From NCBI GenBank assembly GCA_003552665.1, contig PUNW01000392.1:1-46930 (forward strand): 46,930 nucleotides of DNA, read 5' to 3'. The notes under the pieces were generated by a model. The model had not been told where the DNA came from, ran no database searches, and saw only the letters and a program-made list of their open reading frames with translations. A program made the translations under genes and the position numbers. Positions 11,157 to 40,442 of this stretch are shown here, one piece after another. Every line of letters starts with the position of its first letter. Position 1 is the first letter of the stretch. Source of the DNA: Spirochaetaceae bacterium. GTDB taxonomy: Bacteria > Spirochaetota > Spirochaetia > DSM-27196 > SLAA01.

Positions 11157-12124
11157 CAACGCGCATCAGTGTTATCTGCTGCAAACCGATTTACCGGGTA
11201 CTCGACCGCTTTTCCGGAAAACAGCAGCACTACCTGATGAGCTGCCTTGATTCGAAGCTCGTCCAAAGCCTCCTCTGAGTACCACGCCGTGTGTCCGGTA
11301 AGTATCGCTCGGGAGTGCATTAATGGATGATCGGGCGGCGGTGGCTCTTGCGGCACCACGTCAAACAGCACCGCTTGCAGTTCTCCCCGATCCAGCGCAG
11401 CTGCCAGCGCTTTGACATCGACTACTTCTCCCCGTGCGGCATTGATGATGACCGCCGTCTCCTTAAGAAGCCGAAGCCGCTCCGCGTTCAACAGGTTGCG
11501 TGTATCATCGGTGAGAGGAACATGCAGTGAAACGTAATCTGAGCTACGGAGCAGCGTTTCCAAATCGACCAACCGGTCGGTGGGCTGCTTGCCCGCATAG
11601 GGGTCATAACACAGGACTGTTAGGCCGAGGCCGTGTGCCTTCTCTGCCACCGCGCGCCCGATACGTCCATATCCGATGATACCGAGGGTCTGGTTCTGCA
11701 GTCGGTACACCGGCCGAATGCGTGCGAAGCCCCAACCGCCCGAACGGTGCTGCTCGTAGAGATCAAACAGTTTGCGGTTGGCCGCTAAGAGAAGCGCAAT
11801 TACGTGAGTGCTCACTTCTTCGACGCAGTAATCCGGAACGTTGGCGATCTGGATGCCTGCTTCGGTCGCCGCGGCGACGTCGATATTATCAACGCCGATG
11901 CCCCAACGTACAATAATGCGGCACCGTTTCATCCGGGCAATGAGTGGTGCGGTGATTGGGTAGAAGCCGTTCAGCACCGCGTCGGCGTTTTCGAGGAGCT
12001 CTTCAAGCCGCTGGCTATCCTCGGCTGTCAGGACCGAGGCACCGATGCGTTCCGCGGCGTCGTTTTCATGCCGCAGATCGGGCCACGGATAATCAGTGAC
12101 AACGATGGTTCTGCCTACAGACAT
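11156..12124 (-). CDS. D-isomer-specific 2-hydroxyacid dehydrogenase (PGDH/CtBP-like)
   Basis: A Rossmann GIIGYGRIGRAV motif is present. ...NAARGEVVD... and ...TGHTAW... mark the catalytic R/E/H region typical of this family. Confidence 0.85.
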   Translation of the reverse strand: MSVGRTIVVTDYPWPDLRHENDAAERIGASVLTAEDSQRLEELLENADAVLNGFYPITAPLIARMKRCRIIVRWGIGVDNIDVAAATEAGIQIANVPDYCVEEVSTHVIALLLAANRKLFDLYEQHRSGGWGFARIRPVYRLQNQTLGIIGYGRIGRAVAEKAHGLGLTVLCYDPYAGKQPTDRLVDLETLLRSSDYVSLHVPLTDDTRNLLNAERLRLLKETAVIINAARGEVVDVKALAAALDRGELQAVLFDVVPQEPPPPDHPLMHSRAILTGHTAWYSEEALDELRIKAAHQVVLLFSGKAVEYPVNRFAADNTDAR

Positions 12125-25835: not shown

Positions 25836-27743
25836 TTACGCACCGGCTCCGCGGCGGCCGATATAACGGAGCAGGCCGATAACCGCCGCGATGATGGATA
25901 GCTGGGCAATGAGCAACAGCCACGCCACCCCGGAGGAAAGCAGGTCGGCCCGCTGCACGGGCTCCTCAACCACCTGGAACTCGAACCCGACCCTCGAATC
26001 AAAGGCGCCGGGGCGCTGAACCACCACCTCGGCCTGCCATGCACCGGGCACCGTGAGCGCAACCCGCTCGACAACATAACGGCCCTCACCTACGCCACTG
26101 CCGCTGAACTCGAACTCGATGCTCTCTTCCGGAAGGTTGGCCAGCTGCACCGCGAGATCGTCAGCCTCGATCGGCATGCCCGCGGTATCCTCGAGATCGA
26201 GAATCAGGCGATTTCGACCTACAACGCCGGGTTCCACGGTAAAGGTGATTTCGGCACCTTCGTCCTCGGCCGTGAATATCGTCTCCCGCTCCGGATCCAG
26301 CAGCCCGAGCCGATCTGCGGCACTTCCGGCCGGCTCAGAGTTGGCAAGGAACCCGACTGCCAGAAGAACCACAACAGCGAGCGCCAGTTGGCCTTTGTGA
26401 GCCATCCCGAGCACACGCGGAGCCTTCGCGTCATCGAGCAATCTGGGCCGGAGCCACAGCAACTCCACCGCAGCCACAACGAACAAGGCAGCGACCAGCA
26501 CTACCTTCACTACCAGAGTCTCGCCGTATGGCGTGGCGATTGCGGGAGGGGCCGTTACCTGTATCCAGCTGTTGTAGAGCCCGGACAGAAAGAGGGTTAC
26601 GATGCAAACCAGCGCCAGCGCCCAGAATCTGCGGAACACCGGCGGCAACACGGTCTTGTGGTCGTCCGGGCTCAGGCTTCTGAGCAGGACCGGCACGGCA
26701 AACGCCACGTAAACGACGCCTCCGATCCAGGTGCTGCTCGCGAGCATATGCATGAGGTGGTTCACCAGCCCGGGGGTGCGCACACCGGTGCCAACGGCAA
26801 CATGGCTGGTGAAGCCTATCGCTACGGCGCAGGCGACCGCCAGGAGTAGTGGCAGGGACGCCGAAAACGCACTGTCCCCCCGGGTACTGTCCCGGGCACC
26901 GTCTTGGGCTGTCGCTTGCGAAGCGTGCGCTTCTCGGCCCGCAGTCGCTGCTGAGCGCTCTCGGCTCACCCCCACGGCGAGCACCACCGCCAGGACGAGC
27001 CAGAGCGCCATCCGCCATAGCCAGGAAACGCCCCAGCTGGTTTGGAGCGCAACCTCCACCAAGGGGATGCCGCCCAGTATCTGTGCCTGCCCTACAAGCT
27101 CGACGAACGAGCCTACCAGGAGTATCCCGGCCCCCGCTCCAGCTACCGACAAACGGAGCCTGGAAAGGGGATTACGCAAAGCGGGAAAACGCGTCCCGTT
27201 CCCGAACGCCGACCGGAAGGCGAAGAGGTGCAACAGCAGAGCCCCGATCACGGCTGCGAGGCCCAGATGCGTAAGCCAGCGTCCTGCAGCCTGCACCGGA
27301 GACGCCCGGGGCGGATCATCCGCTCCGGGAGCCACCGCCGCCGCTTCAAGCGGTTCTCCGACTGCAAAGAGGAAGAACCCCTCCAGCGGGTGACCGTCGA
27401 CGGCCGAGACGCTTCGCCAGACGACGGTGTAGGTGCCGTCAGGGAGTTCCTCCTGCAGCGCAGCGATCAGGCGTCGCGGATCATCCGGATCGACCGCGGT
27501 CTCTTCAAGCGCCGCCTCGGTGCCGTCGGCATGCAGCACCTGAATCTGACTGCCGCGCGGTTCGATCGCTTCGCTGAACGTAACCTCGATACGCTCGGGT
27601 GTGGCGTCAAGAGAGGTCTCCGGCTCGGGTTCAGCGCTCACCTTGTAGGCGTGAGCGTCAAGATTCGCCGGAGCCGCGAGCCCAAGCGCCACGACGAGAG
27701 CCAGAAGCCCCGGGGCGCACAGTGGCGTGCACAGTCGCCTCAT
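25836..27743 (-). CDS. CopC-CopD fusion protein with a C-terminal YtkA/FixH-like domain (YcnJ-type)
   Basis: A signal peptide is followed by a mature N-terminal His (LDA/HAYKV). The CopC domain reads ...YTVVWRSVSAVDGHP. A polytopic CopD-like region follows, then a beta-rich extracytoplasmic domain and a terminal TM. The start is set at ATG 27743 (GGAGGTG SD). Confidence 0.8.
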   Translation of the reverse strand: MRRLCTPLCAPGLLALVVALGLAAPANLDAHAYKVSAEPEPETSLDATPERIEVTFSEAIEPRGSQIQVLHADGTEAALEETAVDPDDPRRLIAALQEELPDGTYTVVWRSVSAVDGHPLEGFFLFAVGEPLEAAAVAPGADDPPRASPVQAAGRWLTHLGLAAVIGALLLHLFAFRSAFGNGTRFPALRNPLSRLRLSVAGAGAGILLVGSFVELVGQAQILGGIPLVEVALQTSWGVSWLWRMALWLVLAVVLAVGVSRERSAATAGREAHASQATAQDGARDSTRGDSAFSASLPLLLAVACAVAIGFTSHVAVGTGVRTPGLVNHLMHMLASSTWIGGVVYVAFAVPVLLRSLSPDDHKTVLPPVFRRFWALALVCIVTLFLSGLYNSWIQVTAPPAIATPYGETLVVKVVLVAALFVVAAVELLWLRPRLLDDAKAPRVLGMAHKGQLALAVVVLLAVGFLANSEPAGSAADRLGLLDPERETIFTAEDEGAEITFTVEPGVVGRNRLILDLEDTAGMPIEADDLAVQLANLPEESIEFEFSGSGVGEGRYVVERVALTVPGAWQAEVVVQRPGAFDSRVGFEFQVVEEPVQRADLLSSGVAWLLLIAQLSIIAAVIGLLRYIGRRGAGA

Positions 27744-27751
27744 TGTCTCAT

Positions 27752-28477
27752 TCACCTCCACCGTCTTCGCCACGCTGCGTACGCGGTTGCGGCAGCGCTG
27801 ATAATCGCCACCAGCAGCGCCGCTATAGCAAGAAATCGAATGCCCGCGAGGCGATCTTCCAGCGCGGCAGCGGTTCCCTGCGCCGATTCCGCGGTGCTCA
27901 GCGCGCCGCGAACGGCATCCTCAACCTCGCGCGCTTCCGCCAGACGTTCGGGAAAATGGATCTCGCCCGAAGACACCACATCGTCGAAACCGCCGCCCAG
28001 CGAATACGAGACAAAGGTCTCGTCGAGATCCATCCCTTCAACACTGCCGAAGAACCGGAATTCGTACGCACCCGGACGCGTGGGAATCAGGTCCGCGGTG
28101 TAGTGTCCCGGTTGTCCCCACACGTCACGCAGGTCGAAAACCTCCGATGTTCCCGACTGGTCATGCGTTACTTCAACCTGCATGGTTTCCTGCAGCCCTT
28201 CGACCCCCGCTGCGGTATCGTCATGTCCGTTGTTGTGTCCGGCGTTGTGGCCATGCCCGTGACCATTCTCATCCCCACTGGTGACCCGGAAGTCTATCCC
28301 GTTCTTGTATCCTTCGTATGCAGGTTCCTCCATCCAGCCCACAAGCAGCTCGTACTCGCCGACCTGCCGACTCTCATGGGCACACACTCCTCCTACGGAT
28401 GCACCCAGCATAAGCACGACAAGCGCCGGCATGAGCGGTCCACGGCTGAGCGGCTTTTTCAGTGACGGAACTCTCAT
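27752..28477 (-). CDS. Exported His-rich protein with a C-terminal membrane anchor (putative copper-binding)
   Basis: The start is at ATG 28477 with a GAGGAGG SD. The signal peptide ends ...GGVCA/HES, predicting a mature N-terminal His. A GHGHGHNAGHNNGHDD tract and a C-terminal TM (FLAIAALLVAIISAAATAYAAW) are present. No family is recognised. Confidence 0.6.
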   Translation of the reverse strand: MRVPSLKKPLSRGPLMPALVVLMLGASVGGVCAHESRQVGEYELLVGWMEEPAYEGYKNGIDFRVTSGDENGHGHGHNAGHNNGHDDTAAGVEGLQETMQVEVTHDQSGTSEVFDLRDVWGQPGHYTADLIPTRPGAYEFRFFGSVEGMDLDETFVSYSLGGGFDDVVSSGEIHFPERLAEAREVEDAVRGALSTAESAQGTAAALEDRLAGIRFLAIAALLVAIISAAATAYAAWRRRWR

Positions 28478-28500
28478 GAGTCGCCTCCTCGTTCGGCGCC

Positions 28501-28722
28501 TTACCCGGCGGCCTGATGGTGCTCGGCCTCGGAACCGGTTTGCTCCTCCTCGTCGTCCCTGAATGCAACCAACGCGTGCACGAAGTACAGGACCAACATG
28601 AGGACGACGATCGTGTAGCCGATAATCCTCAGCAGGAAGATCTCGGCCACAAGCCACGCGACCGCCTGTATGCCGAGTATGAGATACGCAAAGGCATGCC
28701 AGTTTTTCGTAAATACATTCAT
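28501..28722 (-). CDS. Small 2-TM membrane protein (73 aa), possible accessory oxidase subunit
   Basis: The internal ATG 28722 has an AGAGGTG SD. The sequence is MNVFTKNWHAFAYLILGIQAVAWLVAEIFLLRIIGYTIVVLMLVLYFVHALVAF plus an acidic tail. The tracked 361-aa ORF upstream of this point is an out-of-frame overlap with the oxidase gene. Confidence 0.5.
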   Translation of the reverse strand: MNVFTKNWHAFAYLILGIQAVAWLVAEIFLLRIIGYTIVVLMLVLYFVHALVAFRDDEEEQTGSEAEHHQAAG

Positions 28723-28742: not shown

Positions 28743-30401
28743 TCAGCCGATGATCGGAAAGAATCGCAGGATAAGCAGCGAGATCAGCGCGATTCCCCAG
28801 ATCATGAGAACGACCAGTATCCCCGGTACCTGGGCGGCTGTGTACGCCCACTGACTGAGCGGACGAAACCTCCGCACCACGTCCGGCGCGCCGTAGGTTG
28901 TGCCTTTGAACGCGAGCTTCTCGTCTTCCACCGGCTCGCCTTTCAGCGCGGTCATGACCATTACGGTCATGAAGGACACGCCCCCGATAACGGTTATCAG
29001 CATGCCGATGCCGGCAAGGTTCATCCATGGTATCCACGGAGGCATCCCGGCGCCTGCATACGGAGCCATAATATCTGCGAACCGTCGCGGCAGACCGTAG
29101 TATCCGGATACTATGCCTCCCAAACCATAGAACACCATCCCGCCCGCGAACAGGTACGGTGTCGCCAACGCCAGCTTCGGATTCCAGAGCTTGCGCTTTG
29201 TGGCCAGAGGTACCAGGTAATGGGCGATGGCAAAAAAGGCCATCAGGACGGCTCCCGCTACCGGATGGAAATAGCCGGGTACTGCGAAGGAATGGCTCAA
29301 CCACTCGGCGATTCCGGCCGCGATCAGCGATCCGCCGGCCAGAGCGCCGGGTATGGCCATTATGATGAATCCGCAGATGATCCAGGCGAAATCGGGGCTC
29401 CCCCAGGGAAGATTCCTCAGCCACCCGCCTTTCTTGTTGGGATTGCTCTTCAGGACGATGATCCAGGCGGCGAGCCAGGTCGAGAACAGGATGATCGGCG
29501 GGACGTCGACGAGCAGCGCCAACACCGAGCCCGCTGCGCGTTCGGCCGGGGGGATCGCCGGGTCGAGCAGAAAGTGATAGAACCACGTCGGCGGTACGAG
29601 GAACATGTAGGCGCCCCAGACGGTGCGCAAGTACTTCTCACCGCTCGTAGTCGGTGCGTTCCACTGGTAGGCGACGATGAAGGCGGCGATATACATGGCC
29701 ACCAGCGGCACATAGTGAATGATGTGAAAGTAGAAGTGAAACGCGTGGTCCCAGTCGCCGGTGGCTACCGGATCGGCAATGCCGATAAGCGGCCCGAGAC
29801 CGAGGTACATCGTATACAGCACCGCGACGTAGCCGAACAGCCCGAGCACGGCAACAACGCCGGTCGCGAACGCCAGGTGGTTGATATTGCGCCTCGGTCG
29901 TTTGCGCACCGCTGTGGTAAGGTACTGCCCGTAGATGATCAACGAGCCGATCGAAAGAATCGTATATGACAGATGCTGAACCCAGGTGTACTCAAAAGGC
30001 GAGGTAACTGGGTTCGCCATGTAGGTGGTATCGGCGCCCAGCAGGAACGCGATTATGCTCAGTAGCAAGCTGATCGCAATTAGCCAGAAAGCCACCCACC
30101 CGAGCTTGGTCCCACCGGCAAGCTTGGTGTTTGTTTCCAGCAGCCCCAAGCCGAACCCCAGCACCAGCAGGATTGAAAACAGTCCCATGCCGTAGAAGAA
30201 GATGAGCGTCGCGTGCCCGGTCATGAAGCTGTAGAACTGGTCCTGCAGCACACCGCCGAGTGCCGGGATTCGGCTGGCGGCGGCGAAGATCGCGAGCAGG
30301 CCGCCGAGGCCGATTACCAACAGCTGCATATACAGGAAAGCTTTGACCAGTTTGCGGTCCTCAGGGTCAACCCTCTCCCAAAGCTCCTGAACAAACGTCA
30401 T
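28743..30401 (-). CDS. Heme-copper oxidase superfamily subunit I, B-family (ba3)-like, with atypical ligand set
   Basis: 552 aa with about 13 TM helices. It shows colinear blocks against Thermus ba3 CbaA as I recall that sequence. These are TGHATLIFF, FYFHIIHYVPL, WFYHFLLDPAIP, GWLRNLPWGSPDF, VPGYFHPV and GLPRR. A 4-nt overlap joins it to the upstream CuA subunit gene. Confidence 0.85.
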   Translation of the reverse strand: MTFVQELWERVDPEDRKLVKAFLYMQLLVIGLGGLLAIFAAASRIPALGGVLQDQFYSFMTGHATLIFFYGMGLFSILLVLGFGLGLLETNTKLAGGTKLGWVAFWLIAISLLLSIIAFLLGADTTYMANPVTSPFEYTWVQHLSYTILSIGSLIIYGQYLTTAVRKRPRRNINHLAFATGVVAVLGLFGYVAVLYTMYLGLGPLIGIADPVATGDWDHAFHFYFHIIHYVPLVAMYIAAFIVAYQWNAPTTSGEKYLRTVWGAYMFLVPPTWFYHFLLDPAIPPAERAAGSVLALLVDVPPIILFSTWLAAWIIVLKSNPNKKGGWLRNLPWGSPDFAWIICGFIIMAIPGALAGGSLIAAGIAEWLSHSFAVPGYFHPVAGAVLMAFFAIAHYLVPLATKRKLWNPKLALATPYLFAGGMVFYGLGGIVSGYYGLPRRFADIMAPYAGAGMPPWIPWMNLAGIGMLITVIGGVSFMTVMVMTALKGEPVEDEKLAFKGTTYGAPDVVRRFRPLSQWAYTAAQVPGILVVLMIWGIALISLLILRFFPIIG

Positions 30402-30988
30402 ACGTCCTCCCCCTCGTCCTCGTCATCGGCTGCTGCAGCGACTGCCACTTCCGACAAATCCTCCACAACCTTGATCTCCATCGTCATCTCATGGTGCCCG
30501 ATCCCGCAAAAGATGTCGCACACGGCGGTGTAGGTTCCCGGCTCCGTGAACTCGATCAGGAAATGCCCTCCGTGACCCGGCGAGATCGCCCAGGTTCGCG
30601 AGCCTCCCTGCGGTAACTGGAAGCGAATCCCATGACTCACGTCGGTGCTGGCGGCCTGGACAAAGTACTGTTTCCCCGCTTCCAGAACGACACGATCGGG
30701 AACAAAGCGGAAGGACTCTGCAATCAGCGGCAGATGAAACTGGTCAGCGATGTAGTAACCGTCCTCGTCCTGATCAGCAGTATCCATCCATGCTTCAACC
30801 ATATCCCTGCTCACGGCGGCATCGATGCCGTCGGATCTTACAGCGTCGGCGGTATCGATATGTGCCCCACCGGCTTCGGGAACCAATGCCCCGAACGCCG
30901 CCCATATCAAGGCGCACAATAGGGTTGCCATGCCGGAGCTCACCGAGATGACCTGCTGTCGTGTCCCGGTTTGAAATCTTCTGAACAT
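30398..30988 (-). CDS. Oxidase subunit II with CuA-type cupredoxin domain
   Basis: It has one N-terminal TM. DVSHGIRF (His119) and CDIFCGIGHHEM (C157-x3-C161-x3-H165-x2-M168) fit the CuA pattern H...C-x3-C-x3-H-x2-M. The tail is acidic. An AAGGAGGAG SD precedes it. Confidence 0.8.
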   Translation of the reverse strand: MFRRFQTGTRQQVISVSSGMATLLCALIWAAFGALVPEAGGAHIDTADAVRSDGIDAAVSRDMVEAWMDTADQDEDGYYIADQFHLPLIAESFRFVPDRVVLEAGKQYFVQAASTDVSHGIRFQLPQGGSRTWAISPGHGGHFLIEFTEPGTYTAVCDIFCGIGHHEMTMEIKVVEDLSEVAVAAAADDEDEGEDV

Positions 30989-31069: not shown

Positions 31070-32713
31070 TCAATGGTGCGCAGGCGGCCCGTCGGCGCCG
31101 GGGACGTTCCCATCGGCATCCGGTACGTCCAGCCACGCCATCATCCCGGCCTCCATGTGCTCCGGAATGTGACAGTGGATCATCCACCGGCCGGGTTGTT
31201 CGACTTCAACCAGAATGTCCCAGGTCTCGCCCACCGGTACGGTAACGGTGTCCTTCCATGCCAGATTGTCGTTGGGAACGCGGTCCTTGGTGATCACGGC
31301 GAAGCGCTGGCCGTGCAGGTGAATGGGGTGGTGCATCGGGTGATCGGAGTCGGCACGATTGTGTATACGGATGACTATCTCGTCACCGGGCTCGGCCCGC
31401 ATTTCGATATCCAGATTCTCCAGCGCCTGGTCGGGCTCCCGCAGTATCCAACGGATATCCTCGGTCGTGCTCATCGCGTTATGCGCTACGTGGTCGTCGT
31501 GCCACTCGATGCCGTCGATCAGGGCAATCTGGTAGAGCGGACCTCCCATCATCCGCATATGCGCGCCATGGACATCCCAGTCCATCCAGATATCGAGGTC
31601 GAGGGTGTAGTCTGGATCCCGACCGCGTGCGGCGGCCAGTCGCTCGCTGTCGACGAGCTCACGCTCTTCCGGCCAGGATGCCTCCCAGCGCGCTTCGTCA
31701 ACATCGCCGGGTGAAACATCAACCCTTGAGAGCACGCGGCGGCCGAGCGGCGCATCGTGCAGCACCCTGACTTCGCCGGATTCGGTATAGAATACGTCGA
31801 CGCTGAAACGTTCGGCAGGGCCGACCATGACCGAGTCGACTTCCTCGGCTCGTTCGTAGGTGCTCAAATCGCTTGCAACCAGCCGCGTGGGCATGCCCTC
31901 GAACCTCACCTTGTAGGGTCGGGCGCTGGCGACGTTGAGGATGTGATAGCGTACGATCTCGCCCGCCTCGGCTTCGAAGCGGTAGTCCTTCTCGCCGTTG
32001 ACGACCACAGTTCCCCCGAAGCGCCCCATCATCGCCATGTTGGTATGCTCGTGCCCGTACGGGAAGATCCTGCGCTCGCCGGTGCCGTAAGCCATGTCCT
32101 CTTCGAAGACGATGTCGTTGATGATGATCGCTTCTTCGCGATCGTAGGAATCATTGCCGCCGGAGTAGTGTCCTTCCTCCGGGTCGTAGACGATAATCAT
32201 CCCGTACAGGCCGAGATCCTGCTGGCGGTCTTCGCGGATATGCGGGTGATACCAGAAGACGCCTTCGTCCGGGAAGGTTACCTGGTACTCAAAGGTCTCA
32301 CCCGGCTCCACCGGATCCTGGGATACGCCGGCGACCCCGTCGAAGCGAATGTCGTGTCGCAGGCCGTGCCAGTGGATGGTAGTCGGTTCGTTCAGATTGT
32401 TCGTGAAAGGGACGGTGATCTCGGCACCGACCGGGACACGGAGTACAGGGCCGGGTATCGACCCGTTGTAGGCGTACGCGCCGGGGATCATTGTCCCCGC
32501 ACCATCGTAGTTCACCGGATCGGCGCTGATCGCGTATTCGTCGCCGTCTGCAAGATCGACGATCTCAACGTCCGTACGCGCCATCTCATCTGTCTCAATG
32601 ATATCGCGTTCCGGCACGATCTCGGGCTGAGGTGCCCCGAGCAGCACGCTCACCTGAGAGCCGGGTAGGAAGGCAATGACACCGAGAAGAAGCCAGATCG
32701 TCCGTAATCTCAT
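31070..32713 (-). CDS. Multicopper oxidase (three-domain, CueO/laccase-like)
   Basis: Four MCO copper motifs are present: HWHG, WYHPH, HPIHLHG and HCHIPEHMEAGMM. The start is set at ATG 32713 (MRLRTIWLLLGVIAF, GGGAGGA SD). Confidence 0.9.
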   Translation of the reverse strand: MRLRTIWLLLGVIAFLPGSQVSVLLGAPQPEIVPERDIIETDEMARTDVEIVDLADGDEYAISADPVNYDGAGTMIPGAYAYNGSIPGPVLRVPVGAEITVPFTNNLNEPTTIHWHGLRHDIRFDGVAGVSQDPVEPGETFEYQVTFPDEGVFWYHPHIREDRQQDLGLYGMIIVYDPEEGHYSGGNDSYDREEAIIINDIVFEEDMAYGTGERRIFPYGHEHTNMAMMGRFGGTVVVNGEKDYRFEAEAGEIVRYHILNVASARPYKVRFEGMPTRLVASDLSTYERAEEVDSVMVGPAERFSVDVFYTESGEVRVLHDAPLGRRVLSRVDVSPGDVDEARWEASWPEERELVDSERLAAARGRDPDYTLDLDIWMDWDVHGAHMRMMGGPLYQIALIDGIEWHDDHVAHNAMSTTEDIRWILREPDQALENLDIEMRAEPGDEIVIRIHNRADSDHPMHHPIHLHGQRFAVITKDRVPNDNLAWKDTVTVPVGETWDILVEVEQPGRWMIHCHIPEHMEAGMMAWLDVPDADGNVPGADGPPAHH

Positions 32714-32822
32714 CTTACGTCCTCCCTGAAGCCGTCCGGCTCGTTCGGGACGAACGGCCTCGAATCGATCCTTAATCTTCCCTGTTGCGCGTTGTCTCTG
32801 GTAAGGCTTTGGGGTAGCTTTT

Positions 32823-32852
32823 ATTATAAAAACAGTCAACAATTTCAGTCAA
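32823..32852 (-). promoter_or_regulatory. Near-consensus sigma70-type promoter of the MCO/oxidase operon, overlapping a conserved 21-bp element
   Basis: The minus strand reads TTGACT (32852-32847), an 18-nt spacer, then TATAAT (32828-32823). The block 32823-32843 recurs, 20/21 identical, at 40570-40590. Confidence 0.5.
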
Positions 32853-32908: not shown

Positions 32909-33556
32909 ATGGTAAAAAGAAGCGTATCAATTCTCGCGATCGTGCTGGCGGGAGCGGCGCTTGCCGCCTGCGAAGAGGCCGATGCGGAGCCGGAGGCGGA
33001 CGTCACTGCCTATGTTCTTGCATACCACTGGGGCTTCGCGCTGTTTGATGAAGAGGGACGGGAGCTCGAGAAGTTGGAGGTCCCGCAGGGCAGTACGGTC
33101 GCACTCGTAGCGGTGAACGACCACGCGTTTGATGCCATCAACGAGCTGCCGCAGCCGGTGGCGAATGCAATGCTACAGCTCGATCTGCATGCGCGTGTGC
33201 GGGAGGACATCGAGCAGGGCCTGATCCGGGATCCGGCCGAGTATGGAATGTCGCTCGAGCGTGAGCTCGCGCAGGTGGAAGAGGACGCGGACGACGATCT
33301 GCACCACGACCACGATCACGGCGAGCATGCACATTACCTCGGCGAGGGGCACGAGTACGCGCACAGAGACACCTACATGGATCACGGGCTTCGAATCCCA
33401 GGCTACGACGTCGAGATCGAGAGAATCCCATTCGACGCGCCTCTGCCGAACTTGACGGTCTTCGATGCCGACCGCGAGGGCACGTTTCAGTTCGAGTGCA
33501 CCCAGAGCTGCGGATTCGGGCATCCGCACCCACGAGAAATGCTCGCGGTGCGGTGA
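32909..33556 (+). CDS. Lipoprotein with cupredoxin-like domain carrying a His/Asp-rich insert
   Basis: It has a lipobox (LAGAALAA-C21). Cupredoxin-like strands surround a DDDLHHDHDHGEHAHYLGEGHEYAHRD insert. The C-terminus has CTQSCGFGHPHPREM (C-x3-C-x3-H...M). A GGGGGAG SD precedes it. Confidence 0.6.
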   Translation: MVKRSVSILAIVLAGAALAACEEADAEPEADVTAYVLAYHWGFALFDEEGRELEKLEVPQGSTVALVAVNDHAFDAINELPQPVANAMLQLDLHARVREDIEQGLIRDPAEYGMSLERELAQVEEDADDDLHHDHDHGEHAHYLGEGHEYAHRDTYMDHGLRIPGYDVEIERIPFDAPLPNLTVFDADREGTFQFECTQSCGFGHPHPREMLAVR

Positions 33557-33602
33557 GAGTTTCAGCCCAACTATGGCCCTACCGGGCCGAAGGAGAACGT
33601 AT

Positions 33603-34460
33603 ATGCCATCTCGAGCAACAAAAGCACTCGCAGTCACGATTGCCGCGCCTTTGATTGTGGGGATAGCGGTGTTCGCGGGAATCCGGCTCGCACGCGTGGT
33701 GGAGCGTGCCGAACAGGGCGAACGCGGCGACGAGCTCGAACAGGTTCAGACCGAGGAGGGACAGCTTGCGCTTCAGGAGCCGCTTCAGCACGGCTTCGCC
33801 GAAGAAATCGATCCGCCGGAGCGCGCTGCCGAGTTCACACTGCAGGACCAGTCGGGTGAGACAATAACATTCAGCGAGGACGCCGGCGACGGGGTTGTGG
33901 TGCTCGGCTTCTGGTTGACCCGCTGCACGCATGGCTGCCCGATCAACGCGTACACGGTGGCGCGGCTGCAACAGCTGCTCGAGGACCGGCAGCCGGAGAT
34001 AGCTTCAGACGTCACGTATCTCGCGGTGAGCATAGATCCGGAGCACGACACCCTCGCGGAACGCCGCGAGTTCGTAGACGAGTACCTCGCGGAGTACGGA
34101 GGAGCGGTCCGCTTCCTCGGCGGTGACCGCGAGGAACTCGAGCCGGTCTGGGACGATTATGCGGTATACGTGGAGACCCGCTCTACCGCTGCCGAGCTCG
34201 AGCGCCTGGAAATGACCGAACAGCAGCTTCTTCAACAGACTGAACAGGAAATGCATGGCGGCCATCATGCGGCGGTGCCCGAGGCGGTCCGGCAGGGCGT
34301 GATCGAGGCCGTTGAGCGTGCCGTTGCCGACGATCATCTGGTGGTTCACAACGATGTGATCTACCTGATCAAGGACGGGCAGTTGCGCTACCGCCTGCTC
34401 GGTCACGACATCGATGCGGAAATCGTCGCGGAGAAAATAGCGCGCCTCGCCGGCGGCTGA
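33603..34460 (+). CDS. SCO1/SenC-family copper chaperone / thiol-disulfide oxidoreductase
   Basis: The start is at ATG 33603 (AAGGAGAA SD). It has an N-terminal TM, a thioredoxin-fold CTHGCP (CxxxC) and the downstream conserved His in VVHNDVIYLI. Confidence 0.8.
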   Translation: MPSRATKALAVTIAAPLIVGIAVFAGIRLARVVERAEQGERGDELEQVQTEEGQLALQEPLQHGFAEEIDPPERAAEFTLQDQSGETITFSEDAGDGVVVLGFWLTRCTHGCPINAYTVARLQQLLEDRQPEIASDVTYLAVSIDPEHDTLAERREFVDEYLAEYGGAVRFLGGDREELEPVWDDYAVYVETRSTAAELERLEMTEQQLLQQTEQEMHGGHHAAVPEAVRQGVIEAVERAVADDHLVVHNDVIYLIKDGQLRYRLLGHDIDAEIVAEKIARLAGG

Positions 34461-34471
34461 AACCACACGGG

Positions 34472-37039
34472 TTACTCCAGATGCCGGGCGGGCGAGCGGA
34501 CGTGGTCGCCGCTTACCGGTGACAGCCCCCGGAACTCATCGCGGTAACGCGCAGCGGCCTGCTCGGCTCGATGTTCCTGTGCGTATGCATAGCGGGAGTA
34601 GTAGTGGCCGGCGTGTACGTATTTGAGTTGCGTGGCGGTAAGCTCGGCAAGAAACGGATCATCTTCGGGAGGCAGCGCCTCACGCACTGTGCGATACAAG
34701 CGTTCCCGTCGATCGCCGGTCAGGAAGCGGGGCTCTCCGGCTGCATGGGCGCGGTCGGTACGCGGGGCGACGTACTCCACCCGCGGCATATCGTCGGTGT
34801 TGAGCGGCGCCGCGGCAAAGACTCCTGATGCCGAGAGGTTTCCGACGTAATGGCGGAGAAGCATCGCTTCGTAGTATTCGGAACTTTCTTCGGGGCCGGA
34901 GAATGCGTCCCGGGCTGCGCCGGCGACGACTGAGGGGTCGAACGGATGATCAGCATCGCGATGGCCTACCAGCGCAACGATCGAGGCCGAGGCATAATGG
35001 TCTCCGCGCCAGATCGTCACCCGCGGGAATACCTCGTTCATCGTTCTCGCGATGAAACCCAGTTCGCGTTCGGAGACCTGGTACAGAGGAATCCACTGGA
35101 CATAGATCCCGCCTTCGCGCAGGCGACGGTGTCCGAGCCGGTAATGCTCGAGCGTGTACAAGTTCCCGGTGCCTTGCTTCCAGGGCGTGAACAGGTCGCT
35201 GACGATTACGTCGTACGTGGCGCGACTGCGCATCAGGCAGTTGCGGCCGTCTTCGGCGTGCACCGTGACACGTTCGTCGCCGAAGAGATGGTTGTTCCAC
35301 CGCGAGAACTGCCGTTCAGCGAGGGTGACCACCTCAGGCAGGATCTCACACACAACCACCTCCTCAACCGGGAAGAATAGGGCCGCTCCGGCGGTGATTC
35401 CGGTCCCCATTCCGAGATAGAAAACCCGGCGGGGGGCAGGGTGCTGCAGCAGGGCAACAGCGGTTTGGTTGCGCTCCGGCTCCAGAGAGCCGGAGCTGCC
35501 GAGCGTGTAGTAGTTGTTGACCCGGAGCACTCGGCTGCCGTCCCGGGTGTCGACAGCGGCAACGGTCGCGTGTGACCCTTCGATCCCTTCCACGAGCACT
35601 TCTCCCGGCCGGACGCCGAACGCGATGTTCCGGAGACCCGGCGGCTCGAACCACAGCAGTAGCGCGACCGCTGCCGCCGCAGCCAGGAGTAGCGCCTTGT
35701 TCCGCTTCAATGGAACCGTCGCGGCAAACAACAGCAGCAGCGCCGGATACATCGCGGCGAGCACGAGAAGGCTTCGCCATACTCCGAGGGTCGGGAGCAG
35801 CACGAAGCCACCCGCGAGTGAGCCGGCAATCGCCCCGAGCGTGTCTGCCGAGATGAGTCCTCCAACCGCCGCCCCGGCCGTAGTGTAACCCCGTTCGAGA
35901 AACCGCATCAGATACGGGAGCACCGAGCCGAGGAGAACTCCCGGAAGGAGCATGACCGCTATTGCTACCCCGGCAACCGAAAGCAGGTACGCCGCGAAGC
36001 CTCGCTCGGGGCTAAGGTACGCGAGCCCGTCGGTGGCGCAGTAGAACAGCCAGGGGCTTGCAGCAGCGGCTGCAGCTGCCCCCATCAGGAGCGCAACCAG
36101 AGTGGTCTCCTCCCGAACGCGCGTGAGCCGCGCGAGCAGGTGCGCCGCCACCGCGCCGGTCGCGAGCGAAACGAGAAAGACCGTCAAGACGAGCGCATAG
36201 GTATACGCTGAGTTCTGCAGAACCTGCGCAAACAGGCGTGTCCAGATGACCTCAATTGCGAGCGTCGCAAAGCCGGAGCAGAACGCAACCGTCCGGATTA
36301 TACGTTGTAAGCGCTGCGGCGATCCGGAGCCATGGCCGGCGGCGGTGCGAAGCGGCTGTGAAGTGACAGCGCCTGTAGCGCCTCCAGTGTCGGCGCTTGC
36401 CAATCTCGGGCGCCCCTTCAGCGCTGCGACGAGGCCTACACCGAGATCGAGCACAATCGCGCTCGCATACGCAGCCTGGATGCCGATTACCGGAGGCAGA
36501 ACGAAGCCGGCGGTGAGCGCTCCGCAGGCGGCACCCGCTGTGTTCACGGCGTAGAGCAGAGTTCCGGTGCGTGCAAGCCTCCCACGGCCGCGGATCAGGT
36601 GCTCGCTCATCAGCGGAAGCGTTCCACCGATCAGGAATGCGGTCGGAAAGAGCAGGGTTGCGGCGATTGCGGCTTTGGTGACGCCGTCGAGCACAGCCGA
36701 ATGGCCCACCTGGGCATAGATTAGCGGATAGACCAGGTAGTAGGCGTCCAGCAGCAGAAAATACCCGAGTGCGGTTGCGGCGACGCCGATCTCAAGCAGC
36801 CCGAACCAACGCAGGGCCGACTGAAAACGCCGAGCGCGAGCTCCCCAGAACCGGGCGCCTGCAGCAAGACCGGCGAAGAATATCGCGATCGAAATGGCGG
36901 CTGCCCGCGCCGTGCTTCCGAACAGCATGCCGAGCTCGCGTACCCACAGCACCTGGTACACCAGGGCCGTGAATCCGGAGAGGAAAAACAGCACCAGAAG
37001 CACGGTGTGTTTCTGTGCCGCGCTGCGCTTCGATCTCAT
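34472..37039 (-). CDS. Fused polytopic-membrane / spermidine-synthase-like (class I methyltransferase-fold) protein
   Basis: 855 aa. The N-terminal ~480 aa are polytopic (FFLSGFTALVYQVLWVRELGMLFG). A spermidine-synthase-like domain follows (VFYLGMGTGITAGAAL...YDVIVSDLF). This is the architecture usually annotated as fused MFS/spermidine synthase. Confidence 0.75.
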   Translation of the reverse strand: MRSKRSAAQKHTVLLVLFFLSGFTALVYQVLWVRELGMLFGSTARAAAISIAIFFAGLAAGARFWGARARRFQSALRWFGLLEIGVAATALGYFLLLDAYYLVYPLIYAQVGHSAVLDGVTKAAIAATLLFPTAFLIGGTLPLMSEHLIRGRGRLARTGTLLYAVNTAGAACGALTAGFVLPPVIGIQAAYASAIVLDLGVGLVAALKGRPRLASADTGGATGAVTSQPLRTAAGHGSGSPQRLQRIIRTVAFCSGFATLAIEVIWTRLFAQVLQNSAYTYALVLTVFLVSLATGAVAAHLLARLTRVREETTLVALLMGAAAAAAASPWLFYCATDGLAYLSPERGFAAYLLSVAGVAIAVMLLPGVLLGSVLPYLMRFLERGYTTAGAAVGGLISADTLGAIAGSLAGGFVLLPTLGVWRSLLVLAAMYPALLLLFAATVPLKRNKALLLAAAAAVALLLWFEPPGLRNIAFGVRPGEVLVEGIEGSHATVAAVDTRDGSRVLRVNNYYTLGSSGSLEPERNQTAVALLQHPAPRRVFYLGMGTGITAGAALFFPVEEVVVCEILPEVVTLAERQFSRWNNHLFGDERVTVHAEDGRNCLMRSRATYDVIVSDLFTPWKQGTGNLYTLEHYRLGHRRLREGGIYVQWIPLYQVSERELGFIARTMNEVFPRVTIWRGDHYASASIVALVGHRDADHPFDPSVVAGAARDAFSGPEESSEYYEAMLLRHYVGNLSASGVFAAAPLNTDDMPRVEYVAPRTDRAHAAGEPRFLTGDRRERLYRTVREALPPEDDPFLAELTATQLKYVHAGHYYSRYAYAQEHRAEQAAARYRDEFRGLSPVSGDHVRSPARHLE

Positions 37040-37060: not shown

Positions 37061-38023
37061 TCACCGTAGCGCGAGCCCTATTGCTACGAACACCAGCGGG
37101 AGGTACGTGACCGAAGCGCGTAACAGAAGGCGGGCGTGACGCCTGTCGTAGTGCCTGCAGAGCGAGATAGCCCGGTACGCGAAGCCGATCCAGAGGGCGG
37201 TCGCCGGCAGGGCGTACCAGGGATGTACGAGCTCCAGCGGAACCGGAAGCAGAGAAGCGAGGAGAGTCATTACCGACCAGGCAAGGATCTGCCGCCGCAC
37301 CCGTTGTCCTCCCAGGTCAATGACCGGCAACACCTTCAGATCGGCTCGGCGGTAGTCGCTGAGATTCTTGAGCTGTACTGAATAGAAGTGCGGAAACTGC
37401 CAGGCGAACACGATCGCCGCCAGGGCCCACGCCTCGGCGGACGGCGTCCCGGTCGCCGCGGTCCAACCCACCAGGGGCGGCATTGCCCCGGCAAAGGCTC
37501 CAATTGTGGTGTGTGCAGGGGTTCGCCGTTTGAGGGGGGTATACAGTCCCAGGTATATGATGAGGTTGGCAACCGCGAATACGCCGCACAGAACCCCTAC
37601 CCACAGCGTGAGAATGCCTGTTCCGATCGCCGAAAAGCAGATACCGAACGTAAGTGCGATTTGCGGCTGCATGCGTCCTGACGGCAGCGGTCTGCCGGCG
37701 GTTCGCGGCATCAAGCGGTCGATATCGCGTTCAAGATAGTGGTTCAACGCAAACATGCCGGCGGCGAAAGCCGATACGCCCACTGCAAGCACCACCAAAC
37801 CAAGCCAACCACCCCCCCCGGGCATACGCGACGCTACGCTCCCCGGCCCGGCCTCGATGGTGTCACCGACCCGTGCAGCGATCAGATATGTTCCCAGGGT
37901 AACGAGCAACAGGAGTGTCGCAAGGCGTGGCTTCGTCAGCTCACCGAACGTGGCGAGCGTACGAACGATCGGGACGGTGGTGTCGTCGACCGCACGTGGT
38001 GTCGATCCGATCGTCTCAGACAT
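37061..38023 (-). CDS. ctaB: Protoheme IX farnesyltransferase (heme O synthase)
   Basis: It is a UbiA-family polytopic protein. ELTKPRLATLLLLVT..., ...NHYLERDIDRLMPRTAGRPLPSG... and ...YSVQL...DY... are typical of CtaB/CyoE. Confidence 0.85.
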   Translation of the reverse strand: MSETIGSTPRAVDDTTVPIVRTLATFGELTKPRLATLLLLVTLGTYLIAARVGDTIEAGPGSVASRMPGGGGWLGLVVLAVGVSAFAAGMFALNHYLERDIDRLMPRTAGRPLPSGRMQPQIALTFGICFSAIGTGILTLWVGVLCGVFAVANLIIYLGLYTPLKRRTPAHTTIGAFAGAMPPLVGWTAATGTPSAEAWALAAIVFAWQFPHFYSVQLKNLSDYRRADLKVLPVIDLGGQRVRRQILAWSVMTLLASLLPVPLELVHPWYALPATALWIGFAYRAISLCRHYDRRHARLLLRASVTYLPLVFVAIGLALR

Positions 38024-38037
38024 CTCGCCATCAACCC

Positions 38038-38580
38038 CTAGAACTCCACATCGAACGACGTTCGGGAATCGGTGCCGTGGTCCGAACTGAGATCGTTTGA
38101 CGTTCCGTAAGCGAGCATGAATGTGTGCGTCTCACCGGGGTTGAGAGGATTGTCATACTCATCGCCCGAATCAAGCGGCCGGCGGAAGTGGAGCATCGTT
38201 CCTCCGTCGGTCAGTTCGCCGGCAATGAGCTCGACGTCATCGGTACCCCCGAGCTCGGTATCCGGCCGGTGTGTGGTCAGCTGATCGCCGTAGTGGTCTT
38301 CGATTACGACGTTGCCGTCGTCTTCCACATAGCCGATTATGATGTCGGCACCGCGCATTGTGGCCTCCGGATCAAACCCGACACCGACCCAACCTTGCTC
38401 GGGCGAGGTCACGATGAACTCGGCCATGTCACCGTCCACACGCCATTCCAGCGTCATGTCGATCGCTTCGACGCGCTTGAAGCCCTCATCGGTCTCGGTG
38501 ACCTCCGGCGGCGGGTCGCACGCTGCCACAGCGGCTATGACCGCCGCGAGTAACATAGCTCGGCGCAGGGTAATTCGCAT
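38038..38580 (-). CDS. DOMON-domain lipoprotein (putative extracytoplasmic heme- or ligand-binding)
   Basis: It has a lipobox (AAVAA-C) and an AAGGAGG SD. The beta-sandwich pattern LEWRVDGD...FIVTSP.QGWVGVGF...GADIIIGYV... is typical of DOMON domains. Confidence 0.65.
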   Translation of the reverse strand: MRITLRRAMLLAAVIAAVAACDPPPEVTETDEGFKRVEAIDMTLEWRVDGDMAEFIVTSPEQGWVGVGFDPEATMRGADIIIGYVEDDGNVVIEDHYGDQLTTHRPDTELGGTDDVELIAGELTDGGTMLHFRRPLDSGDEYDNPLNPGETHTFMLAYGTSNDLSSDHGTDSRTSFDVEF

Positions 38581-38768
38581 GCCTTGCCTCCTTTACCGGT
38601 GCATCGCGTTTGATCGTTTGATGGTGTGTCCTGTTCTCCTCCGTTCCACGCATCGATCCAGCCTGCCAGCCTAAAGTTGACTAAAACAGTAACATTATGA
38701 TAACCGGGTTCGGCTGATTTGGCAACTGACCGTAAGACCGTTCGGGAAACCCGGATTCGCTTCACGCT

Positions 38769-39146
38769 TCAGGGCGCGCCCGCGGAGCTGCCCCGGCGGG
38801 CTTCGACGAACGACCTGATCCCCGCAATCAGATAGACCAGCGCGATGACAGCCATAGCGCTCGAGGCCAGCGCGGCGGCATCCGGGCCCGCGAGAAGGCC
38901 GGGAACACCGCGCCCGAGGCCCCCGAGAACCACCAGAAGCGCGAGCGCCATCGCGGCATGCATAAGGTGTTTGCGCCAGGCGGAAACCCGCGCAGCCAGT
39001 ATCCCCAGCGCAGTCAACAGTACGCCCGGACCGGCCGGAATCAGAACTGTCCAATGGGGAGGGGCTCCGGGCTCCATCAGGCCTAAGAACAGCCCGATTC
39101 CGAGCAGAACGAACGCCATACCGGTGATTACTGTCGTTCTCGGCAT
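38769..39146 (-). CDS. Small 4-TM membrane protein, function unknown
   Basis: 125 aa and hydrophobic, with a strong AGGAGGAAGG SD. It lies 45 nt downstream of the hemA stop on the same strand. Confidence 0.55.
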   Translation of the reverse strand: MPRTTVITGMAFVLLGIGLFLGLMEPGAPPHWTVLIPAGPGVLLTALGILAARVSAWRKHLMHAAMALALLVVLGGLGRGVPGLLAGPDAAALASSAMAVIALVYLIAGIRSFVEARRGSSAGAP

Positions 39147-39191
39147 ATTACCTTCCTCCTGAAGAGTTCCGCCGGTGAGCTGCGCTCGGGC

Positions 39192-40442
39192 TCACTCTGC
39201 GCCCCAGTCGTGTTTCCCGGTGTAGTTCCGGGGCGAAGAGGCAGGCGGCTCATGCGCATGAGTCGCGGTGTGGATCATCCGCTGCGTCAGGCTTTCGGCG
39301 AAGCGTCTCAGCTCGCCGGCGTTGCGTTCGTCAAGCGAATGCTCCCAGCGCGCGACCTCCTCCTTGCACACCGAGTGCAGTCGATCACGAAGCCGCTCGC
39401 GCCCCGGTTCATCGCCATCGCCGGAGCGCACGTGCTGCTCGGCGAAGCGCTCCACTGCGGTCTCGATTAACTCTTCAACCTGTGGAACGGCCATCAGGCG
39501 GCGGTCGTAATTGGCATCTACAATCGGACTCACCGATTCGATGCTGTACAGCGCAACGGAACTGAGATCATCGGCCTGCGCTTCCACGATGCGCGGTACG
39601 CTGATATCGATCAGAACGAGCGGGCGTCCGTTTCGGTGTCGATCCAGCGCCTGCAACTGCGTGCGGTTGATCAAATAGCGATTGGCGTACTGCAGGCTGA
39701 GGAACGCAAGGTCGGCTTCGGCAAGCGCAGGCTCGATCTCGTGCAGCCCTGCGATCGATGCGTCCAGTTCTTCGGCAATCGGCAGCGCGTTCTCACGCGT
39801 ACGGTTGGCGACTGTAAGCGAACGAACCTCGCGCTTGCGAAGATAGCGCATGATCTGGGTCGCCATTTTGCCGGCGCCGATTACCAGAGTGCGCTTGTCG
39901 GCCAGCCCATCGCACAGGCGAGCGGCCATCTCCACCGCGGCTACCGAAACCGAAACCGTACCGGCTCCAATCTGAGTCTTGGAGCGAGCCTGTTTGCCGA
40001 TTCTGAAAGCCTCATGGAACAATCGGTTCAGCACCGGGCCGGTTGTGCCGGTGTCGACTGCCTGTCGATAGGCGTCTTTGACCTGCCTGACGATCTCAAC
40101 CTCTCCGACAACCAACGCATCGAGGCTGGTAATCACCCGGAACAGATGCCGTGCGGCTTCGCGTTCGTGGAGACAGTAAAAGGAGTCCTGCCATGGGCGA
40201 ATGTCGACCGCCTTGATCTCGCGAAGGACGCTCCGGACGAACTTGGGGGCTTCGACAGCGGAGCTGCAAACGAGCAGGATCTCGACGCGATTACAGGTGC
40301 TCAGCAGGGCTGCTTCACGAATTCCGGGTTGCTCATAGAGGCGCGTGAGACAGCTCGGCAGCTCTGCTTCGGAGACGGCGATCTGTTCGCGCCTGTCGAC
40401 GTCGAGCGACTTGTGGTTGGCCCCGTACAGGACAAGGGTCAT
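39192..40442 (-). CDS. hemA: Glutamyl-tRNA reductase
   Basis: ALLSTCNRVEILLV contains the catalytic Cys motif. GAGKMA marks the NADPH-binding domain, followed by a C-terminal dimerisation helix. A GAGGGA SD precedes it. Confidence 0.9.
   Translation of the reverse strand: MTLVLYGANHKSLDVDRREQIAVSEAELPSCLTRLYEQPGIREAALLSTCNRVEILLVCSSAVEAPKFVRSVLREIKAVDIRPWQDSFYCLHEREAARHLFRVITSLDALVVGEVEIVRQVKDAYRQAVDTGTTGPVLNRLFHEAFRIGKQARSKTQIGAGTVSVSVAAVEMAARLCDGLADKRTLVIGAGKMATQIMRYLRKREVRSLTVANRTRENALPIAEELDASIAGLHEIEPALAEADLAFLSLQYANRYLINRTQLQALDRHRNGRPLVLIDISVPRIVEAQADDLSSVALYSIESVSPIVDANYDRRLMAVPQVEELIETAVERFAEQHVRSGDGDEPGRERLRDRLHSVCKEEVARWEHSLDERNAGELRRFAESLTQRMIHTATHAHEPPASSPRNYTGKHDWGAE

Follow-up and report, generated by a model that had tools for sequence, protein, structure and literature searches.

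The 46,930-nucleotide stretch of Spirochaetaceae DNA analysed here (contig PUNW01000392.1; hereafter, the window) encodes on its minus strand the subunit I of a heme-copper oxidoreductase in which two histidine ligands of the superfamily are replaced by tyrosines, Y275 at a ligand column of the active-site copper (CuB) and Y377 at the column of the proximal ligand of the high-spin heme. Judging from sequence comparisons and the predicted fold, we consider it very probable that this protein acts as the catalytic partner in a functional oxidoreductase of two subunits and that it is a member of a monophyletic, conserved offshoot of the B (ba3-type) family. By its description, this offshoot is almost certainly the barely described J family, of which the window protein would be a new member. 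More tentatively, with a probability of roughly 0.4, we propose that the enzyme is a terminal reductase that receives its electrons through CuA and has a heme ligated by tyrosinate; it would run a ferric/ferryl, peroxidase-type cycle on a peroxide-level oxidant and would not pump protons in a ba3-like manner. In either event, the reaction chemistry is probably unlike that of the usual O2-reducing oxidases. The six histidine ligands are regarded as the invariant feature by which heme-copper oxidoreductases are defined, and some classifiers discard sequences that lack them.

Tyrosines at two histidine-ligand columns

The oxidase genes of the window and the sites discussed below are located as follows.

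28743..30401, minus strand: 552-residue subunit I, with an ATG start, of a heme-copper oxidoreductase of the J family, which derives from the B family
29712..29729, minus strand: helix VI motif FHIIHY (F225-H226-I-I-H229-Y230), with F225 at ba3 G232 and H229 at ba3 V236
29577..29579, minus strand: TAT codon of Y275, at the column of the ba3 CuB ligand H282, read directly
29271..29273, minus strand: TAT codon of Y377, which falls on H384, the proximal ligand of heme a3 in ba3, read directly
30398..30988, minus strand: subunit II, a 196-residue cupredoxin with a complete CuA site (H...C-x3-C-x3-H-x2-M), aligned to ba3 subunit II

Subunit I matches the Pfam COX1 profile (PF00115) over residues 17-468 and profile positions 1-435 of 436 (E=4e-34; 118.7 bits against a cutoff of 34.8), and the sole real matches of phmmer among the chains of the Protein Data Bank (PDB) are the entries of Thermus thermophilus ba3 subunit I (E about 1e-9). 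In the HMMER alignment to ba3, H63 falls on H72, the pair H226/Y230 on H233/Y237, Y275-H276 on H282-H283, and Y377/H379 on H384/H386, where H282 is a CuB ligand and H384 the proximal ligand of heme a3. The same ligand columns were recovered when a 15-sequence family profile of divergent relatives was compared with ba3 (E=1e-51), and three independent alignments concur on them. The superfamily has six histidine ligands, two for the low-spin heme, one for the high-spin heme and three for CuB or FeB. Four of the six are kept, including those at both low-spin heme columns (H63 and H379), whereas the columns of ba3 H282 and H384 hold tyrosines. Helix VI retains H226 and Y230 at the columns of the CuB histidine and the cross-link tyrosine, and the propionate-binding arginine pair is also present (R439 and R440, corresponding to ba3 R449/R450), being invariant or nearly so in the family.

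An earlier note on this DNA, made without database searches, had aligned the protein to ba3 by eye, and its alignment proved correct at every ligand column. Both low-spin heme ligands and the CuB His-Tyr pair are kept as it had stated, the tyrosines at the CuB and proximal columns were recovered in pairwise and profile hidden Markov model alignments, and the TAT codons it had placed at 29579-29577 and 29273-29271 are seen on direct reading. The gene, which it took to be intact, is a full-length open reading frame (ORF) preceded by a Shine-Dalgarno-like GGGGGAGG stretch and shares a 4-nt ATGA overlap with the gene for subunit II, which is likewise intact and aligns to its ba3 counterpart with all CuA ligands. 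At the level of the aligned columns, the tyrosine-ligand pattern is confirmed as real and not an artefact.

Relatives form a conserved clade

Whether the single protein or the 15-sequence profile served as the query, word-indexed searches gave just the same five proteins; three of the four relatives found in this way, down to 31% identity, carry both tyrosines. Given this yield, an exhaustive search of representatives and a scan of metagenomes were needed. The former, a HMMER profile search of 1.84 billion cluster representatives, gave 809 matches, of which about 30 with both sites resolved read HHYYHYH at H63-H226-Y230-Y275-H276-Y377-H379. Y377 is present in every match that has Y-H at 275-276 and a resolved column 377, and the next-best matches after this Tyr/Tyr block are ordinary HHYHHHH proteins. 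The scan of Joint Genome Institute metagenomes uncovered 264 loci encoding relatives, 80 of which were retrieved for analysis; wherever the columns are covered, these loci encode Y275-H276, Y265 and Y127, none of which formed part of the search pattern.

In a dereplicated family set of 38 sequences, with identities to the window protein down to about 22%, Y275 and Y377 are present in all members, compared with none of the 18 B-family-like outgroup sequences. The Tyr/Tyr clade was monophyletic in 98 of 100 neighbour-joining bootstraps, computed from capped distances after removal of ten signature columns (see below). The closest relative, L001, is a locus from a soda-lake sediment metagenome-assembled genome (MAG) labelled Spirochaetales; the ratio of nonsynonymous to synonymous substitution rates (dN/dS) between this 84%-identical orthologue and the window gene is 0.068. 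Collectively, these comparisons support the view that purifying selection acts on the gene and that its lineage is monophyletic, conserved and akin to the B family, the tyrosine pattern being a property of a clade and not the outcome of random decay. A genome scan with narrow patterns gave only two species representatives and, because of that narrowness, the taxonomic breadth is to be taken as a lower bound.

In an Anaerolineae MAG (JBCLES010000022.1; L002:9830-11501), the J-family subunit I is split in two overlapping ORFs (9830-11380 and 10959-11501), which points to a frameshift, to pseudogene formation or to an error in the assembly. Subunit I ORFs of 600-776 residues in some loci are upstream-start artefacts and not fusions with subunit II. 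The exhaustive search also recovered a separate group of oxidase-like proteins of ~480 residues (P0054, P0069, P0073, P0082, P0092, P0102 and P0105), in which the CuB HH pair reads x-Y ('P[FL]xY'), helix VI reads 'GGHxLQ[YF]', both helix-X histidines are kept ('AHYHG') and the arginine pair is R-K. By these motifs, the group is another ligand-variant lineage; its position as sister of the Tyr/Tyr clade in the first neighbour-joining tree was discarded, with a bootstrap of just 12/100.

The AlphaFold2 model of subunit I has 13 long helices, with a mean predicted local distance difference test (pLDDT) score of 81 and a predicted template modelling score of 0.87. The top Foldseek matches are all oxidase subunit I, the best being ba3 (3s8f; template modelling score, 0.77). 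Against the PDB, the family profile matches ba3 at 1e-51, the Aquifex enzyme 7DEG at 7e-50 and A-type enzymes at 1e-13 or weaker, with no C-family or NO reductase (NOR) chain at E<=1, and none of the NCBIfam models matches the window subunit I. The B-family enzymes of T. thermophilus (1EHK/3S8F) and Aquifex aeolicus (7DEG) are the best match in sequence, profile and fold. The family has in common with ba3 the 13 helices, a CuA subunit II, the His-Tyr pair of helix VI, a bis-His low-spin heme, the R449/R450 pair, Y133 and Y248.

A remodelled pocket and an eroded proton path

At ten signature positions, the family has invariant or almost invariant residues that the outgroup does not share.

F68, at ba3 A77
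F225, at ba3 G232 (38/38)
H229, at ba3 V236 (38/38)
P232, at ba3 W239
Y265, at ba3 F272
P270, at ba3 T277
T272, at ba3 V279
Y275, at ba3 H282 (38/38)
Y377, at ba3 H384 (38/38)
G429, at ba3 L439

The departures from ba3 thus extend beyond the two ligands (H282 to Y and H384 to Y) and include G232 to F, V236 to H and W239 to P. Some of the ba3 PDB entries among our matches carry mutations at two of these sites (G232V and V236A/T/N/I/L/M). Since G232 and V236 presumably border the ligand channel at its junction with CuB, the family is predicted to have an invariant histidine (H229) and an invariant phenylalanine (F225) at the entrance of the binuclear site. The extra histidine cluster that the earlier note had seen in this helix holds up for the family-invariant H229, but H222 is present in only 23 of the 38 members and H219 is local to the subclade of the window protein. 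The helix VI pair H226/Y230 is invariant (38/38), as is the O2-channel residue corresponding to ba3 Y133, found as Y127. ba3 W229 is not conserved, being replaced by His in 23 of 38 members, and A120 is mostly replaced as well, usually by S, N or Q.

The B-family analogue of the K-path is not found as a conserved set. Y244 is replaced by Val in 31 of 38 members and S261 by Gly in 23 of 38, T312 gives way to V or H and T315 to I, V or L, and the only positions kept are Y248 (36/38) and S309, the latter as Thr (33/38). The window protein itself has Y237, F241, G254, P302, L305 and T308 at the positions of Y244, Y248, S261, S309, T312 and T315, respectively. The heme a3 propionate partners are mostly replaced too, D372 by Ala (34/38) and H376 by Ser (24/38). 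No invariant arginine is found among the family-specific residues in the 38-member set.

The CuA subunit and heme o synthase as recurrent partners

Of 86 loci, which form 28 groups at 80% identity, 62 (20 groups) have a subunit II gene directly upstream of the oxidase gene and in the same orientation, and most of the loci without it are cut off by contig ends. All 62 of these genes encode C-x3-C-x3-H-x2-M with an upstream histidine, and a fused cytochrome c domain is absent from all of them. Many of the subunits (L003, L016, L020, L053, L061 and others) end in long C-terminal tails rich in His, Asp and Glu (e.g., HEHEEEEHGHAEGDHHDGEGDHHDE), which by their composition look like metal-binding tails; the tail of the window subunit II is acidic and without histidine.

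In 17 other loci (6 of 28 groups), the gene directly downstream of that for the oxidase belongs to the UbiA family, and the two such genes that were tested exceed the curated heme o synthase cutoff (TIGR01473). In the window, the gene for heme o synthase is located 6.7 kb from the oxidase genes. Farnesylated heme is used in B-type enzymes at the high-spin site only, and the linkage to heme o synthase therefore implies that the high-spin site of the family is filled and holds a farnesylated heme. Cytochrome c and cupredoxin genes recur near the oxidase loci; beyond subunit II and heme o synthase, however, the neighbourhood is variable.

One of the loci (L055:2493-12466), on a 3.2-Mb metagenome contig (Ga0315338_1000001), is a respiratory island that includes a J-family oxidase. 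The genes are ordered as follows: a cupredoxin-fused NirK (TIGR02376, 349 bits), cytochrome c, a CuA subunit II, a NOR-like oxidase in which Gln replaces the cross-link tyrosine, an Rrf2-family regulator, subunit II, the J-family oxidase and a cbb3-like CcoN with a FixO/cytochrome c fusion.

Relationship to the J family and to other branches of the superfamily

The I, J and K families of heme-copper oxidoreductases were introduced as previously unreported in the FIND preprint, the classifier of which was trained on 11 O2-reductase and 7 NOR families, and the J family was described as having two tyrosines in place of the histidine ligands of the active-site metal and the high-spin heme (bioRxiv 10.1101/592808, 2019). 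The treatment consists of one sentence and a homology model, and the text lists no sequences; a lowered heme potential was predicted, and the family was placed among the O2 reductases without function, context or biochemistry. Our literature searches found no other mention of the J family and no biochemical characterisation. The window protein has exactly the same two-tyrosine trait, and we infer its identity as a J-family member from the description in the preprint. The suggestion of the earlier note that the gene might represent a wholly undescribed lineage has to be softened, because the ligand pattern had already been catalogued once under this name, albeit without a function. To what was known of the family, we add the invariance of H229 and F225 and the replacement of most of the K-path and propionate partners, both newly noted here from the alignments, as well as the universal CuA subunit, the linkage to heme o synthase and a complete operon. 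The first four are not mentioned in the preprint.

A recent survey of the superfamily recognises A, B, C, cNOR, qNOR, eNOR, sNOR, bNOR, nNOR, gNOR, NOD and a putative N2O reductase, and a tyrosine proximal ligand is described for none of these families (PNAS 2024, PMC11214002). Several B-derived families became NO reductases via altered active-site residues, and the cross-link tyrosine is lost in all known NOR families (PMC11214002). Like the J family, the B-derived NORs (eNOR, bNOR, sNOR, nNOR and gNOR) are B offshoots; they have a subunit II of the CuA type and show changes in the ligands of the active site or of a heme: the ligands of the low-spin heme are His/Met in nNOR and His/Lys in some eNORs, and the subunit II of gNOR is without CuA ligands (PMC11214002). 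In these enzymes, however, the cross-link tyrosine is lost, the proximal histidine is kept and, in most of the families, the proton channel is conserved, whereas in the J family the tyrosine is kept, with Y230 being invariant, the proximal histidine is lost and the ba3 K-path is eroded.

There is a possible likeness to the FeB site of cNOR and qNOR, which consists of three histidines and a glutamate. The distal site of the J family has no conserved glutamate, but H226, H229 and H276 together with Y275 could, by their predicted positions around the distal metal, form a set of three histidines and an oxygen donor. Nevertheless, cNOR and qNOR belong to a C-family-related lineage, use a carboxylate and not a phenolate donor, have no His-Tyr cofactor and retain the proximal histidine.

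A proposed ferric/ferryl cycle

In the mechanism we propose, electrons would be delivered from a periplasmic cytochrome c or cupredoxin to CuA, pass to the low-spin heme and then reach a farnesylated (O-type) high-spin heme, the axial ligand of which would be the tyrosinate of Y377. This heme would lie opposite a remodelled distal metal site made up of H226(-Y230), H276 and Y275, with H229 serving as a fourth ligand or as a replacement for the third histidine, or else as a distal acid-base residue. The tyrosine-ligated catalytic hemes of catalases, allene oxide synthase and MauG have an Fe(III) resting state and react with peroxide-level oxidants, and in globins, His-to-Tyr variants at the proximal position lock the iron in the ferric form; in both settings, tyrosine ligation lowers the Fe(III)/Fe(II) potential. 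Because tyrosinate would stabilise Fe(III) and Fe(IV)=O and disfavour Fe(II), we favour a ferric/ferryl cycle that would convert H2O2 or a similar oxidant to water, and regard the classical cycle of Fe(II) and O2 as less likely. Proton pumping in the ba3 manner is probably absent, since most of the K-path and proton-loading residues of ba3 are replaced.

The chemical analogy with heme catalases, already drawn in the earlier note, and with other tyrosine-ligated heme enzymes would lie in the combination of a proximal tyrosinate with a distal-side histidine, and the hypothesis of catalase-like chemistry becomes somewhat more attractive with the invariant H229 beside CuB. The likeness is confined to the ligands: we found no similarity to catalases in sequence or fold, and catalases are soluble enzymes without an electron-input chain, in which the tyrosinate is stabilised by an arginine that has no invariant counterpart in the J family. 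In a bolder form of the proposal, which we regard as doubtful, the scaffold would have been converted into a membrane-bound, CuA-fed tyrosinate-heme enzyme that never needs the ferrous state. With a ferric/ferryl cycle and a phenolate-containing distal copper or iron site (His2-3/Tyr), it would reduce peroxide-level oxidants or carry out some other reaction new to the superfamily, and would constitute a new catalytic class.

Several considerations weigh against a peroxidase-type cycle. The pLDDT around Y275 is only about 55, and the ligation by tyrosine is itself predicted from alignment columns. The His-Tyr pair, a hallmark of O2 reductases in the superfamily, is fully kept, and the J family was filed among the O2-reductase families (bioRxiv 10.1101/592808). 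No invariant arginine was found that might hydrogen-bond the tyrosinate as in catalase, and the neighbourhoods examined contain no recurrent peroxide-stress regulator or partner. The oxidase of L055, set among nirK, the NOR-like oxidase and the Rrf2 regulator, points to the metabolism of nitrogen oxides. Furthermore, the family-invariant helix VII residues Y265 and T272 could form a substitute proton path, in which case the enzyme may still pump protons. Finally, periplasmic di-heme peroxidases already do the same job cheaply, which weakens the physiological rationale.

In the family, CuA, the low-spin heme, the His-Tyr cofactor and the farnesylated high-spin heme appear to be kept while two histidines are changed to tyrosine, which amounts to a test by nature of how the chemistry of this scaffold depends on the axial ligand and on the ligands of the distal metal. 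If O2 turned out to be reduced, a tyrosinate-ligated heme would be shown to be able to support O2 reduction. If another reaction were catalysed, a third catalytic class would stand beside the O2 and NO reductases, and 'cytochrome oxidase' genes in metagenomes would have to be read differently. The window, which provides a complete operon (multicopper oxidase, subunit II, subunit I and copper-handling genes) with the SCO1 and heme o synthase genes nearby, is suited to expression.

Alternative functions

The protein may instead be a genuine O2 reductase, the strongest of the alternatives, although we hold it to be unlikely without dismissing it. The tyrosinate would then only lower the potential of the high-spin heme, perhaps being protonated or released on reduction, and O2 would be converted to water by the His-Tyr cofactor and a CuB bound by H226, H276 and H229, the third ligand having migrated and not been lost. 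The His-Tyr pair speaks for this explanation, being invariant here and lost in all NOR families (PMC11214002), as do the B ancestry, the CuA subunit, the adjacent heme o synthase and the nearby cytochrome c genes. The O2-channel residue Y133 is likewise invariant, as Y127, there are three histidines near the CuB position if H229 is counted, and the J family has been classed with the O2 reductases (bioRxiv 10.1101/592808). By contrast, established heme chemistry has it that tyrosinate disfavours the Fe(II) state required for O2 binding, the channel positions G232 and V236 are now occupied by Phe and His, and most of the K-path (Y244, T312, T315 and S261) and of the propionate partners (D372/H376) is lost.

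A role in the conversion of nitrogen oxides, that is, NO and possibly nitrite or peroxynitrite, appears improbable, its main basis being the single locus L055. In such an enzyme, H226, H229, H276 and Y275 would mimic the FeB site of NORs, with its three histidines and glutamate, and the distal metal might be iron and not copper. The invariant residues would supply the required set of three histidines and an oxygen donor, several B-derived families did turn into NO reductases (PMC11214002), and in L055 the oxidase stands in the order nirK, cytochrome c, NOR-like oxidase, Rrf2 regulator, J-family oxidase and cbb3-like oxidase. Denitrification genes are, however, confined to one of the 28 locus groups examined, the reduction of NO needs a ferrous heme, which tyrosinate disfavours, and the cross-link tyrosine is kept, unlike in every known NOR family (PMC11214002).

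More improbable yet is a non-catalytic or accessory function, in which a protein with a disabled binuclear site would serve as a module for electron transfer or for heme or copper handling, tied to the copper genes (multicopper oxidase, CopCD and SCO1). Tyrosine-ligated hemes are common in heme-transport proteins, and the window oxidase is indeed located between the genes for a multicopper oxidase and CopC-CopD, next to SCO1; multicopper oxidases recur in 4 groups, and subunit II often bears His/Asp/Glu-rich tails. Yet the copper genes are not conserved partners, and purifying selection is strongest at the active-site pocket, where new invariants have arisen (F225, H229, Y265 and T272) while H226, Y230, H276 and the arginine pair are kept. 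The linkage to heme o synthase, moreover, implies a filled high-spin site. As for an artefact, TAT differs from CAT by one base and the first alignment was made by eye, but misalignment, sequencing error and a decaying pseudogene are refuted by the agreement of three independent alignments, the invariance of the pattern in 38 divergent relatives and 80 metagenome loci, the full-length ORF, the coupled translation and the dN/dS of 0.068.

Genes surrounding the oxidase

On the minus strand of the window, the genes for a three-domain multicopper oxidase, subunit II, subunit I, a His-rich 301-residue protein and a CopC-CopD fusion follow one another, and further genes connected with copper and heme lie beyond it.

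25836..27773, minus strand: CopC-CopD fusion (copper handling or import), overlapping the end of the gene for the 301-residue protein
27752..28657, minus strand: His-rich 301-residue protein with a C-terminal hydrophobic stretch and a GHGHGHNAGHNNGHDD stretch, downstream of the oxidase and between it and CopCD
31070..32842, minus strand: three-domain multicopper oxidase (CopA/CueO-like), immediately upstream, below the NCBIfam cutoffs
32909..33556, plus strand: protein of 215 residues that has, at its C-terminus, a CuA-like cupredoxin segment (C-x3-C-x3-H), with weak CoxB/COX2 similarity (E=6e-6 and E=6e-4)
33465..34460, plus strand: SCO1/SenC-family copper chaperone/thiol-disulfide protein (PF02630, E=1.3e-15); proteins of this type assemble CuA sites
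34472-37039, minus strand: 855-residue fused multi-pass membrane/spermidine-synthase-like protein (NF037959 'fused MFS/spermidine synthase', 127 bits)
37061..38023, minus strand: heme o synthase, CtaB/CyoE (TIGR01473, 242.7 bits against a cutoff of 210.3)
38038-38580, minus strand: 180-residue DOMON-domain protein
39192-40442, minus strand: glutamyl-tRNA reductase HemA

The multicopper oxidase gene probably belongs to the same operon as the oxidase genes. Upstream of the oxidase genes, such a gene also occurs in L001 (the closest relative), L074 and L037; besides L001, two further groups have it. The His-rich 301-residue protein has no match in Pfam, NCBIfam or the PDB and is not found next to other family members in the loci examined; its interpretation, together with CopCD, as a YcnI/YcnJ-like pair was dropped, as the putative YcnI part shows no similarity in any of these three databases.

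The 215-residue protein, which like SCO1 is encoded divergently from the oxidase operon, contains a long His/Asp-rich insert, and its ORF, as listed, overlaps the start of the SCO1 ORF. The gene for the 855-residue protein is located between those for SCO1 and heme o synthase, and the last of these forms, together with the DOMON-protein and HemA genes, a heme-related cluster at 37061-40442 on the minus strand, 7-10 kb from the oxidase. The G+C content is about 53-57% in the first 18 kb of the window and 59-65% in positions 18000-46930, which include the oxidase region. Elsewhere in the family, an ICMT/PEMT-like membrane methyltransferase is encoded near the oxidase in 10 loci (6 groups; among them L003:8749-9435 and L021:222-881), sometimes along with genes for DUF2933, DsbD_TM, DsbA-like, DUF302 or P-type ATPase proteins, such as clusters for metal handling typically contain.

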